A DNA stretch of 64,000 nucleotides from Octopus sinensis (taxonomy: Eukaryota). Below are positions 5,347 to 59,533 of the stretch, in pieces; position 1 is the stretch's first letter; each line of letters starts with the position of its first letter. The notes under the pieces are model-generated. The model saw nothing but the letters and a program-made list of their open reading frames with translations. It was not told the origin of the DNA and made no database searches. The stretch spans positions 22,444,001-22,508,000 of the forward strand of contig NC_043012.1 of assembly GCF_006345805.1 (NCBI RefSeq), given 5' to 3'. Both the position numbers and the translations under genes were made by a program.

Positions 5347-6125
5347 CAGGGCGTGATGGGTAAATTGTTGCCATTGTATATTTTTAATTTCCTGCATGTG
5401 CATTGTTTGGTTTTGATTTTGTTGACCATACAATATAGTAGGGTCAGTTGGGCACTGTCTGTGAGAAAAACAACACCAAGATGCAATTCACTCAGCCAGA
5501 AATTTGGAAACAACATGCTGCACTGCTTGGCATTCACACCAGAAGCTCCAATATGAACATTTCAAAGTGTTTGGGTGTCAATCTGAGGACAGTGCAGAGG
5601 ATTCGAAAAGAGTTTGATGAGTCTAATGGTGATTATGAGGGAATGGTAATTCGGAAAACTCACTCTGATCATTCTGATGAGAAAAGAACTCCTGAATTTG
5701 TTGGTGAAATCCAGGCCACGATTGACAACGATCCCACCAAGTCAATCAGGTCCATTGTCAGGGACATGGGAGCGTCTGAGTTTCTTATCAGCCAGGTAGT
5801 CCATGAAGACATTCAGTATTCCTCATACAAGATGAGAAAGGGCCAATTTTTATCCCAAGCATTCAAGGATGAGAGGAAAGACTGTGCTACGAAGCTTTTG
5901 AGCAAACTCAAGCATCCCCTCCAACCAAACACGCTTTGGTTTTTCTCAGATGAGAAAAATTTCTGCCAGGATCAGATGGGTAACACACAGTACAACCATT
6001 GGCTTGCCGTGTCCCCAAAACCTGTACTGAGAGTGATAAAAATCAAACAAACATCCAGTCAACATCATGGTGATTGGAGTGATCACCAGTGATGGTGACG
6101 TTATGCCACTATTCATCTTTCCACA
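5347..6125 (+). pseudogene. 3'-truncated Tc1/mariner-superfamily (maT-like) transposon; transposase from ATG 5481, frameshifted near 6050
   Basis: TA+CAGGG terminus; HTH segment ISKCLGVNLRTVQRIRKEF; DNDPTKSIRSIVRDMG; first catalytic D in WFFSDEKNF; continues out of frame as HPVNIMVIGVITSDGDVMPLFIF. Confidence 0.85.
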
Positions 6126-22350: not shown

Positions 22351-23252
22351 TAATCAGCATGTTTGTTACAATCACTGGCCGAGACACACCCAGCATCCTA
22401 AGGTGAGTGATGGATAAGAGATGTTACAGTATGACTGAAAGCTTGAGGAGGGGAAGAAGTAGCAGGGGCAACAGCAAAGTATCTTTATGTAAAACAACAC
22501 ATATATTTAAATTGATAGGGTTTTTATAAGGATGTGGGCAGTACTTGTCAGCACAATCTTTTAGGCTTCTCTGAGACACAGTTCCTCTGGGATCTTGTTT
22601 CTGACATACTTTTTTTCATACTTAGGGCACCCACAATATTATTATAGTTATTCCTTCGTAACACAGCATAAGTAAAAATGCACCGGAGTCTTTAGTCACC
22701 TGTCAAGTCACAACAAAGACCTCAAACAGATAATACTTTCCATAAGATGTGTGCTGTGCCCAATAAGGCTGCTTTTTGCAAGACATCAATCTTGCATATA
22801 ATTTCCAGTTGCCTTAAGAAGTTTTGAAGTTTCAATGGGATTGAGCCCAATGCTCCAATCACCACTGCTATCACTTTCACATTACCCTCTCACATTCCAT
22901 ACAGTCTTGCCATTTCCACTTTCAATTCGGAGTACTTGGTGATTTTTTCAACCTCTTTACTCACAACATTCATGTCATTTGGTATAGCTACATCAATGAT
23001 CTGACAGTGTTTGTCTCTTATATTCAAAATGACAATATCCAACCGACAGTGTTCAATTACACGATTCATCTGAAAATCACAGTCCCAGAGTATCATTACT
23101 TTACCATCCTCCTGCATAACTTTACTCGGTACATGCTCATACCAGTTCTCTGTTACTTCATGTTGGTATTTAGGGCGTAAGAGCCAATGAAGATATACAT
23201 ACTTTATTGTGGTGGTGCTTGTATTCTTTTCATGCAAGGCTCTAACATCCAC
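22351..23252 (-). mobile_element. 5'-truncated R4/Dong-like non-LTR retrotransposon (RLE domain plus 3' UTR) inserted in a (TAA)n tract
   Basis: WYEHVPSKVMQEDGKVMILWD..HCRLDIVIL..IIDVAIPND..EKITKYSEL..*EGNVKVIAVVIGALGSIP..LQKAALLGTAHILWKVLSV* (stop 22722-22724); (ATT)n at 22321-22350 and 23253-23295. Confidence 0.85.
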
Positions 23253-29449: not shown

Positions 29450-29486
<37 letters not shown>

Positions 29487-29514
29487 ACACATGTCCTTGT
29501 GGAAGCTGTTGTGT

Positions 29515-29592
29515 GCGGCTGAAGAAGGCCACAGACATACATTATGCATTGTTATAAATCTGTCTAATAAAGGCCCGAAACATATGTACCGC
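29515..29592 (+). ncRNA. minimal type I hammerhead ribozyme candidate, intact core
   Basis: GCGG-CTGAAGA-A-GGCC(ACAGA..TCTGT..)GGCC-C-GAAA-CATATG-TA-CCGC; palindromic stem III ACATATGT. Confidence 0.75.
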
Positions 29593-29699
29593 TGAATCCT
29601 TCGCATCATGTATTTATTTTATTTTGATCAATTTACTCCACCACCTACACCACCAAACGGTATACACAGGTGCTTATAATTATCAAGTACTCACCCCGA

Positions 29700-29737
<38 letters not shown>

Positions 29738-54218: not shown

Positions 54219-55069
54219 AAGTAGTAGCAGCAGCAGCAGTAGCAGCAGCAGTAATTACAGTTATAGATTTGGTTATGTTTCTCTTTCATTAAAGAATCTT
54301 ATTTCAGTTTGCAGATCAATTCAGTCATAGTAAAAATTGATCATCATCATTATTGCCATCATGATTGTTGTCATCATCATCATCATCCTCTTCATTTTAC
54401 ATTTGCTTTTCAATGCTGGCATGTGTTAGACAAGTCATTACAGTCAGAGTCAATTATAATTCAGTTATTATTATTTCTCACTTGGATCCTTTTCAGTATT
54501 CTGCAAGAACATGTCAGACCATAGAGATATAATGTCTTGTTTGGAATTAAGTGAATGAAAGCAAAAGGAAGGGCATCCAACCACAGAAAACTGCCTCAAT
54601 AATTTCTGTCTGACCCATGCAAGCATGGAAACGTAAACCTTCAATGATGATGATGATGATGATGATGATCTTGCAAATACTTTTCACTTTTGACATGTTG
54701 CCTATGATTCAATGCTCTTCCTATAATGAACCACCTCACAGAGGGCTTTGGGTGCATTTTCATAATGGCACCAGCATTAGAGAGGTTATCATGTCCCCAG
54801 CAAGACTCACAAGTTCTCTCAATACTATATTGCTCCCTTCAAGGTTAAAGTCTGTAATTCAACTGATAATACTAATATTACCTCCAAAGGTACAACTGAC
54901 TGCTTTCAATGGAAGTCTTTGAGGCTGTCATGGTCACCATTCAGCTCATGGAACTTTCTAAGTGGCATGTCTAACAAAAAATTACTTCGAATGTTTTTAG
55001 TAGTGCAGCCTGCCCGATGATGAGTCATGTGTCATGCTTCTTCATGAGAAAGGTTGTCCCATATCTGCC

Positions 55070-55297: not shown

Positions 55298-56130
55298 AAG
55301 ACATTATGCACTCCTTTCATAATTTCAGCTTGACCTACTTCAGAATTGGTGCTGTCCAGGGATCTTTGCCAATATTGCACACAAGATGCTCATTGTGTAA
55401 CTTTGCCCTATCATAATCTTGTCTGATCCATGCAAACATAGAAAAGTAGATGTTAAATCGATGATGACGATGATGATGATGATGAGGATGTATGAAAAGT
55501 GAATCTAATGTCATCTGTGTTACTTTGAAACTTTTAACATGAAATGTGTGGTGGTGTGGTTGCACGGTCAGAAGTTTGCTTCTGAGCCATATGGTCCCTG
55601 GTTCATTCCCACCATGAAGCAACTTGGGCAAGTGACTTTCACTGTAGCCTTGGGTCAACCAAAGCCTTGTCAGTGGATTTGGTAGATGGAAACTGAAAGA
55701 AGCCTGTCATATGTGTGTGTGTATCTGCATGTGTGTATGCTTGTGTTTGTCCTCCATAACTGATTGGCAACCATTGTTGGTGTGTTTAATGTTCCCCTAA
55801 CTTAGCAGTTTGGCATATGGTTGATCCATTTAAACAGAAATTCTTCAAGGCAGTGCCCCAGCATGGCAACAGACCAATTACTGAAACAAGTAAGAGATAA
55901 AAGATGTGTTTGTGTGTGTGATTGCACATACAAGCAAGTACATGCTTTTCTCTTGCTCTCTCTCTCTCTCTCTACATATATATATATTAGTTGGAGTGGT
56001 TCATCTGTGGTTCATATATATATTAGTTGGAGTGGTTCATATATTAGTTGGAGTGGTTCATCTGAAGCGACAAGTTCGCTGATAGGTAAAGTTCCTTCTT
56101 TTTAGTGTTTCCAAATCCAAATTAAGAAAT

Positions 56131-56193
56131 TTTGAGCTGACGAAAGAAATGCTGATTTTATTTGGCTAATCTTGAAACGTTGACGTACTCAAA
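56131..56193 (+). ncRNA. type I hammerhead ribozyme candidate with intact core and all three stems
   Basis: TTTGAG-CTGACGA-AAGA..TCTT-GAAA-CG TTGA CG-TA-CTCAAA; predicted cleavage after A56187. Confidence 0.8.
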
Positions 56194-56392
56194 CGATCTA
56201 TGTACTTGTGATATTTTTCTGTATTTACCTCCAAACCTTCGTGAGCTGTCTGGAGTAAACATTATCTGAGAGAAATTTTCTTTAAGTAGTAGAAATGGCT
56301 AAAAAAATTTTTTTTGGCTGCTATTTCTACTAAGTTCAGTATGTGGCAAAGTAATTTATTTTACTAAGCCCTAATTATATAATTACACCAAT

Positions 56393-56817
56393 CTGACCGT
56401 ACAACAGGCACCCATGCCAACCCCCTTGCTTGCGAAGACATGTTGGGGCAAGCGAAATCGAAATCGAATTGAACCAGCCAGGATCCCTGGTCTGGTGGTA
56501 CGTAAAAAGCACCATCCGACTCGTAGCCAATGCCAGCACCGCCTCGTCTGGCTTCCGTGCCGGTGGCACATAAAATACACCAATCCGACCGTGGCCGTTG
56601 CCAGCCTCGCCTGGCACCTGTGCAGGTGGCACGTAAAAAGCACCCACTACACTCACGGAGTGGTTGGCGTTAGGAAGGGCATCCAGCTGTAGAAACACTA
56701 CCAGATCAGACTGGAGCCTGGTACAGCCTTCTGGCTTCCCAGATCCCCGGTCGAACCGTCCAACCCATGCTAGCATGGAGAACGGACGTTAAACGACGAT
56801 GATGATGATGATGATGA

Positions 56818-57719: not shown

Positions 57720-58616
57720 ATCTTTTGTAATCTTGGCGTTGGGTCAGCAATTTTGAGTGGGTTGGGAGCTGATGCATTTGATCCTATCACACACACCCCC
57801 AGTACTCAACTGGTACTTATTTCATTGACTCTGAAGGGATGAAAAGCACACTCGACCATAGCCGAGTTTGAAGAAATGCCCCTGAGCACTTCATCTGGTT
57901 TGGCAACAACCCTAGCAGCTCATTACCTGCCCAATAATGGTAACAAATTCTTTGTATAATAGGCACAAGGCCGTAACTATTGGGGTAAGGGGCTCCTTAA
58001 TTATATCGACCCCAGTGCACAACTGGTACTTATTTTGTTAATCCCAAAAGTATGAGAGGTAAATCTGGCCTTGGCTGCATTTGAACTCAGAATCAGAGAG
58101 AGCTGGAAGAGATGTTGCTAAGCATTTTGTGCAACATGCTAACAATGTTATGAGTCTGCTGACTTCCCAATGATAATATTCTTTTCTACTCAAGGCACAA
58201 GGCCTGATATTTTTGGGGAAGGGGCCAGTCGATTAGATTGATCCCAGCATGCAACTGGAACTTAATTTACCAACCCTGAAAAGATGAAAGGCAAACTCAA
58301 CCATGGCAGAATTTGAACTCAGAACATAAAGACAGACGAAATACCGCTAGGCATTTTGCCTGGTGTGCTAATGCTTCTGCCCACTCGCTGCCTTAAATGT
58401 TCTTTTCTACTCTAGGCACAAGGCCTGAAATTTTGTGGGGAGGGAGCCAGTTGATTATATTGACCCCAGTACACAACTGGCACTTAATTTATTGACCCTG
58501 AAAAGCTGAAAGGCAAAGTCAACCTTGGCAGAATTTAAACTCAGAATGAAAAGACAGATGAAATACCGCTAAGCATTTTGCCTGGCACGCTAACGTTTCT
58601 GCCAGCTCACTGCCTT
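57720..58616 (-). mobile_element. tandem array of four SINE family B copies next to (AAT)n
   Basis: Units at about 57720-57930, 57950-58165, 58180-58395 and 58400-58616. Confidence 0.8.
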
Positions 58617-59533
58617 ATCCTAATGATAATATTAATCAACAGATGTTGTATTACCACAACAGTTAGGATAAAACATTCTTCCACAACACTGTGATGAAGA
58701 CAAATAAAAATTTCATATTGTTTTTATAATGAATTGTGGCATATATTGAAGTGAAGTGCTTTGTTTTACCTTAAAAATAATTAAAAGTGGCCCTGAGGTT
58801 ACCTTTAACAGACAATTGGCATTCACAGATACACCCTAATCCCTTATTTGTCACATTAGGGGTTTCCATTGGATATGTCTTTTATCTTTTATTTCTTTCA
58901 ATCATTGGACTGTGGCCCTGCTGGGGCACAACACTGAAGGGTCTAGTTGAACAAATCAATCCCTGTTCTTTTATTTTTAAAGTCTTGTACTTATTCTATT
59001 AGTCTTTTTTGTTGAATTGCTAAGTTATGGAGACATAAAAGAAAAAAAAAACCCTACACCAATTGCCAAGAAGTTGTGAGGAACACAAACACAAAAGAGA
59101 TAAATAAACAGATACGTATATATTTATATGATGGGTTAATTTCAGTTTTCATCTATGGAATTCACTCACAAGGCATTGTTCAACCTGGGACTATAGCCAA
59201 AGATACTCAAGGTGCTGTACAGGGGGACTGAACCTAAAACCACATGGTTGCAAAGCGAACTTCTTAACCACATTGCCATGTCTACCCATGAATTTTATCT
59301 AATCCTCATCCACGTAAGAAGCAGCTAGGCACAGAGGAGAAACTCTTGGTTACCAGTCTTTCTTCAGTTGCTCTTACAGGTGGATGAATTTAGCAGCCAT
59401 AGAGGCAAACAAGCTTTACTACAAACCTTCCCACTGTCTCACCTACCAACAACACTTCTTGATTAATTATAAATTAACTATTCACACCTCAGCCACATCC
59501 AGTCTGTTGCAATAGGTCTGCAGTTCTATCCCA

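Follow-up and report, generated by a model that had tools for sequence, protein, structure and literature searches.

A type I hammerhead sequence in Octopus sinensis lies in a truncated copy of a probable Penelope-like retrozyme family

The locus considered here lies in a 64,000-nt stretch of the Octopus sinensis genome (hereafter the window), where a type I hammerhead descriptor finds a single match on the two strands, at 56131–56193 of the + strand, with the core CUGANGA/GAAA/NUH present around three helices. The same descriptor returned a mean of 0.005 matches per window in 200 block shuffles, and none with strict settings, which confirms the motif as a genuine hammerhead-ribozyme sequence, far above chance, in agreement with its identification in an earlier note on this DNA. 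The coordinates which that note gave for stem I, CTGACGA, helix II, GAAA, helix III and GUA all hold, and are listed below with the surrounding features; those within the motif were read off the sequence.

55956–55986, no strand assigned: (CT)n/(TA)n microsatellite in the left flank, the likely target, read off the sequence
55987–56043, + strand: stuttered 5′ junction, with repeats of 21 and 17 nt and a 7-nt fragment from the start of the element, between TA runs
56044–56383, + strand: truncated one-armed copy of the repeat unit, carrying unit positions 1–339 without 340–561, 5′-truncated
56125–56127 with 56197–56199 (within 56125–56199), + strand: outer extension of stem I past the internal loop, with one compensated pair
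56131–56193, + strand: type I hammerhead (stem I, CUGACGA core, long helix II, GAAA, helix III, GUA), with 210 exact copies in the genome
56131–56136 with 56188–56193, + strand: stem I
56137–56143, + strand: core CTGACGA
56144–56173, + strand: helix II, long, with a 3×3 internal loop
56174–56177, + strand: GAAA
56177–56186, + strand: helix III strand, self-complementary (3 bp plus a 4-nt loop in the monomer, a 10-bp duplex in the dimer)
Predicted cut after 56187, + strand: GUA cleavage triplet, ending at A56187
56287–56332, + strand: long hairpin upstream of the end site, conserved across subfamilies
56369–56383, + strand: end site A, CCCT plus an AT-rich stretch, the putative start of reverse transcription
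56384–56800, no strand assigned: unrelated high-copy interspersed repeat in the right flank, from repeat comparison, which we take to be SINE-like

Rfam returned no match at the gathering score over the whole window and no hammerhead family among the eight matches at E ≤ 10 over 55900–56500, the length of helix II being the likely reason. With a relaxed descriptor (0.4 matches per shuffled window), another convincing hammerhead appears at 29515–29592, and it is likely on account of this second hammerhead that the motif had been called the best preserved, a description that stands within the window only. The second hammerhead is also of type I, with a palindromic helix III and a mismatch at the base of helix II, and sits in a fragment of another family (29484–29704, + strand) with TA-tract flanks, the 3′ end of which resembles the end downstream of a GIY-YIG frame at another locus (L135). 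Elsewhere in the window are a transposase-like remnant with weak helix-turn-helix matches (5442–6089, + strand), a fragment presumably resembling the C-terminus of a non-LTR retrotransposon (22893–23252, − strand), and two tandem copies of a 222-nt interspersed repeat (58175–58617).

The hammerhead is one member of a large repeat family (all copy counts refer to the 2.72-Gb genome). The 3′ 20-mer of the motif has 384 exact matches and related helix III versions have 115 and 3,731, with reversed controls at zero throughout, and four subfamilies together account for >4,200 exact motif matches. The repeat unit measures 561–564 nt in the window subfamily and 544–564 nt across subfamilies, which are 77–88% identical to one another; it has no long reading frame, carries one type I hammerhead, and occurs both head to tail in tandem and in inverted two-armed structures. 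The window copy itself is 97–99% identical to copies on many contigs genome-wide, with 3 differences in 337 nt from the nearest unit compared, and its 340-nt stretch was found in 20 sequencing runs from eight studies under five organism labels, none of them listed as an RNA run. The motif is identical to the majority sequence of a mobile family that is young, so that its good preservation reflects this youth, not selection at the locus. The copy amounts to 0.6 of a unit and misses 40% of it, including the second end site (site B, see below), and it cannot release a unit because it has only one ribozyme. Truncated as it is, the copy is likely a dead passenger; were a host transcript to cross the + strand, slow cleavage is the most that it would achieve. 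The stuttered 5′ junction may record repeated priming during integration; there was no empty-site joint at this insertion among the joints listed.

In an alignment of 12 family variants, the core is fixed except at N7 (C, U or A) and the cleavage base (A or U), which are the two positions that a hammerhead tolerates changing. Self-complementarity of helix III is retained in three natural versions, whose duplex energies range from −9.8 to −11.6 kcal/mol and none of which forms a stable hairpin alone. The window strand had been described as one transition away from the palindrome ACGTCGACGT. It does have a natural one-letter relative, but this is ACGTTAACGT (115 exact matches), with ACGTCGACGT absent among the helix III variants of older subfamilies examined, and as RNA the strand is already fully self-complementary, able to form a duplex of 10 bp (−10.8 kcal/mol) in which the two central pairs are G-U. 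The hint at a dimer in the earlier note is supported. The perfect 6-bp stem I noted there is likewise true of the window copy, but only four of the six pairs are conserved across subfamilies. An A-U pair stands at the base of helix II; regarded as a deviation in the earlier note, it appears to be the better case rather than a defect, given that this position (pair 10.1–11.1, purine-pyrimidine and usually G-C) is unpaired in 10 of the 12 variants. A compensated pair occurs in the outer stem I extension (G-C in six and A-U in four, n = 11 sequences), with single compensated pairs also in upper helix II and in the helix enclosing end site A. Cells of the hammerhead alignment pair in 89% of cases, compared with 30–41% for slid partners; no formal measure of hammerhead covariation rose above shuffles (191/500 to 500/500). 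In the hammerhead of a sister family (G), whose helix II is long and whose 10.1–11.1 pair is the canonical G-C, all three helices differ and the core is kept. In the window motif, near-identical 3×3 internal loops occur in stem I and helix II (56119–56205).

Taken alone, the window motif is predicted to fold into an active monomer at −9.2 kcal/mol, compared with −9.6 kcal/mol for an inactive fold (active-fold probability 0.03), and into an active dimer at −30.0 kcal/mol, compared with −19.2 kcal/mol for two monomers. Within the 340-nt fragment, the predicted probability of stem I is about 0 and that of helix III 0.01–0.02, whereas stem I does form in the predicted fold of the full unit. The ~562-nt unit RNA is strongly self-paired (z = −4.81, with none of 100 shuffles equally stable), and for two consecutive units as they occur naturally, the energies of the dimer, two-monomer and inactive folds are ≤1 kcal/mol apart, so that a dimer is plausible in the window subfamily, but the energies do not force it. 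An inactive fold is also available in which the helix III strand pairs with the core, completely in 9 of 11 variants and with one break in the other two; it would possibly represent a conserved off state. These features resemble those of the minimal dimer-type hammerheads described by Cervera and de la Peña (2014, PMC4209133), which are of type I, with a 4-bp core helix I, a long helix II and a short palindromic helix III, and for which a single motif is reported as inactive, dimers as of low activity, and a circle model is proposed. We note, however, that the G10.1–C11.1 pair described as highly conserved there is A-U in the window copy and a mismatch in most relatives, and that helix III is longer here (3 bp plus a 4-nt loop), such that some monomer activity may exist.

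The earlier note had further suggested that the motif could cut a host pre-mRNA, for which we find no support. We consider it very improbable that the window copy has a host role, whether in cutting a pre-mRNA or a non-coding transcript over the + strand: the core is intact, with an A-U pair at the base of helix II, and in isolation the active monomer lies just 0.4 kcal/mol above the best fold, but stem I is predicted not to form in context, the sequence is that of the family majority, no second family copy is present in the window and its 90 kb neighbors (154 kb in total), and the single minimal motif of PMC4209133 did not cleave. We also detected no host exon in the window and the 90 kb neighbors, a weak negative, as short exons or exons amid long introns can be missed. 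No Pfam curated cut-off was reached in the frames scanned (in the window, 147 of the 185 unmasked frames and one other; in the neighbors, 80 of 211), the clearest weak matches being transposase remnants, and crude exon scans gave no convincing exon. A gelsolin match below cut-off was unsupported by structure search. With respect to expression, the unique flank at 54700–54979 has no cover in two presumed RNA runs and is covered in two presumed DNA runs, which we do not count as evidence. Contigs of four presumed RNA runs cover 26–30 of 30 unit bins and contain no splice joint in the unit; the unit junction appears in three of the four, which genomic tandems explain equally well. Near the unit 3′ end (L015:1690–1880), these contigs, mostly those of runs X1 and X6, show loose ends together with clusters of A>G and T>C changes, which likely reflect A-to-I hyper-editing of double-stranded RNA from inverted arms.

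The ends of the family are more informative than the window copy. Of 75 distinct outer ends, 34 fall at unit positions 335–348 (site A), 31 at 428–438 (site B), and 10 elsewhere, the two sites lying about 90 nt apart (near 340 and 433), and TA repeats directly adjoin about 60 of the 65 ends at the two sites, such that the insertions sit in (TA)n tracts. Among 91 clusters, 57 are two-armed and uncut by a locus edge, and 50 of these pair site A with site B (three of which seem to be a single insertion present in triplicate in the assembly), seven have one end elsewhere, and none has the same site at both ends; in older subfamilies, the A-with-B combination accounts for 11 of 13 cases, with one B-with-B case and one case that has a different end, although neither set of counts is unbiased because the loci came from searches favoring long or well-kept copies. 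This A-with-B pairing is the "tail" signature known from Penelope-like elements, and the tail measures about 90 nt in the octopus family. For such elements, in vitro work has placed the tail between two reverse-transcription start sites and has described the cutting and extension of both target strands, with a protein-dependent ribozyme that insertion can do without (Frangieh et al. 2024, PMC11167929), and genomic work describes a 30–40 bp tail usually at one end, inverted 5′-truncated arms and a (TA)n bias (Craig et al. 2021, 10.1101/2021.04.23.441226). Both end sites of the octopus family follow CCCT (window 56364–56374), and site A in sister families F and G reads AACCCTAA, like one telomerase template repeat, which may be chance.

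None of 101 inner ends lies at the cleavage site, compared with 2.0 expected at random, so that cleaved linear RNA is not the evident template, and a circle and an uncleaved multimer both fit. Across 141 pieces from 42 insertions, minor variants are held in common at 45% within an arm, 25% between opposite arms and 3.5% between insertions, values that sub-lineage markers inflate and to which later conversion can contribute. The insertion-private variants number 23 in all units, 17 in some and 105 in one. The sharing fits one template lineage per insertion and copying of more than a unit.

A GIY-YIG scan of the genome gave 5,029 candidates, of which 150 were scored and 59 loci inspected, and several Penelope-like families with intact 775–781 aa RT plus GIY-YIG frames, ending in TA tracts, were found. 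No such frame lies in the unit or belongs to its copies, and the end-module profile matches no GIY-YIG element's own 3′ end in the 59 loci. Because none of these loci has the unit as a terminal repeat, an autonomous partner can only be inferred. Several candidates were discarded. A 5-kb interval separating arrays contained a Penelope insertion unrelated to the family, the Penelope frames located close to family copies are independent insertions from other families, and no coding frame of their own was found in 78 loci of sister families F and G. Families F and G are themselves protein-free, with about 1,900 first-look candidates each, and share the two-site end module (loci L228–L305). A young Penelope-like family (L098, L107, L143, L145–L147) has intact 781-aa frames with a Zn-finger-like linker and is of Neptune type by the labels of 10.1101/2021.04.23.441226. 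This family carries its own hammerhead variant with a U3-A8 core, with a possible intron acceptor inside the ribozyme core. A palindromic helix III is also a feature of at least four other hammerhead families, which occur in TA-flanked fragments (L094, L129, L130, L144, L145).

Judged by its sequence, the family would be a non-LTR retrozyme, that is, a non-autonomous Penelope-like element of a known kind, with cleavage and circles predicted. In the literature on octopus or cephalopod hammerheads, retrozymes and non-autonomous Penelope elements (with subscription papers and repeat databases outside this scope), we found no description of it. Like the animal non-LTR retrozymes of PMC7229834 and 10.64898/2026.07.22.740005, it has a non-coding tandem unit with one type I hammerhead, low GC content, strong folding and thousands of copies, in a genome that also holds autonomous Penelope-like elements; its ~562-nt unit compares with ~170–400 nt in the former source and 51–972 in the latter. 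RNA circles have been described for mussel retrozymes (Cervera and de la Peña 2020, PMC7229834). The inverted arms, fixed end sites and TA target of the octopus family do not feature in the retrozyme descriptions that we cite from these two sources, and the Penelope link, which in 10.64898/2026.07.22.740005 is drawn from co-occurrence and pLTR similarity, is here drawn from the insertion signature, with no pLTR match found. With the endonuclease-bearing Penelope-like elements Neptune, Penelope/Poseidon and Naiad (10.1101/2021.04.23.441226 and PMC11167929), the family shares partial tandems, (TA)n targets, an inverted 5′-truncated arm, a tail confined to one end, and a hammerhead that lies upstream of the reverse-transcription start sites. 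Unlike those elements, the octopus unit has no reading frame, and its tail is about 90 nt compared with 30–40. The octopus start sites lie in AT-rich stretches able to pair with a TA primer, whereas the anole element is described as starting without target homology (for further background, see PMC6765202 and PMC8967140).

We favor, as the somewhat more probable account, that the hammerhead is a passenger in a truncated protein-free repeat mobilized by a Penelope-like reverse transcriptase-endonuclease through a putative circle cycle. In this cycle, a tandem copy would be transcribed, two hammerheads, likely paired through helix III, would cut out a unit-length RNA, and this RNA would likely circularize. 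A Penelope-like protein would nick the TA tract on both strands and start two cDNAs, from site A and site B respectively, which would run around the template for a variable distance of up to about five units, and the two arms would join head to head; the window copy would be a one-armed product that stopped after 339 nt. The copy numbers of the family, its lack of a long reading frame, the A-with-B ends next to TA repeats, the intact Penelope-like frames elsewhere in the genome, the variants shared within insertions and the strong folding of the unit support this account, as does the retention of the ribozyme, which is suggested by the near-fixed core, the self-complementary helix III and the core of family G. 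Against it stand the formal covariation, which is not above shuffles, the predicted two-unit folds that lie within 1 kcal/mol of one another, the 59 GIY-YIG loci in which no autonomous element shares the unit, the excess of insertion-private variants confined to one or some units, and the right flank of the window copy, which is not a TA tract. In addition, only one of nine retrozyme dimers cleaved in the report of Li, Clavereau and Pollet (2026, 10.64898/2026.07.22.740005), in which the invertebrates are three insects and one anthozoan, and cleavage is described as dispensable for insertion in vitro (PMC11167929).

Alternatively, the same element would insert in the same Penelope-type manner from an uncleaved multi-unit linear transcript, with the hammerhead acting late, rarely or in a protein-dependent way and the arrays homogenized by local recombination instead of circle copying. 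Unprocessed RNA is described as the main substrate in vitro, where ribozyme mutants insert normally (PMC11167929), arms run through intact ribozymes, the helix II base pair is broken in most variants, and the inactive core/helix III pairing is possible across subfamilies. We nevertheless regard such a template as rather unlikely, since the core is intact over about 22% divergence, and several subfamilies retain arrays that are four to five units long, whereas a linear-only cycle would tend to shorten them; the absence of inner ends at the cut site, which it would explain, fits a circle equally well. Less likely still, and in our view quite improbable, is that the fragment is the pLTR of an undiscovered autonomous Penelope-like element, of which the short units would be deletion products. 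The Penelope-type ends and hammerhead would suit a pLTR, and the genome holds many autonomous families, with just 59 GIY-YIG loci inspected; however, every multi-unit copy inspected repeats at about 545–570 nt without a coding insert, the Penelope frames near family copies belong to other families, and the end-module profile matches none of the GIY-YIG elements at their own 3′ ends.

Within the favored circle cycle, we put forward more tentatively that a dimeric Penelope enzyme inserts a protein-free hammerhead circle with strictly one start site per nicked TA strand, and rolls out two multi-unit arms in one event. The single window motif matters little, being one of hundreds of identical passengers, and the part worth following is the A-with-B end rule of the family. 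How animal retrozymes move, and what role the hammerhead plays in Penelope-like elements, are presented as open questions in the literature cited here, and this family, being young, present in thousands of copies and near-strict in pairing its two fixed end sites ~90 nt apart, offers a clean substrate for an in vitro Penelope assay and a circle test. If the dimeric-enzyme proposal is true, the Penelope mechanism would be recorded in the genome by the A-with-B rule and by the variants shared within insertions, which would also provide direct evidence that animal retrozymes move by this mechanism.
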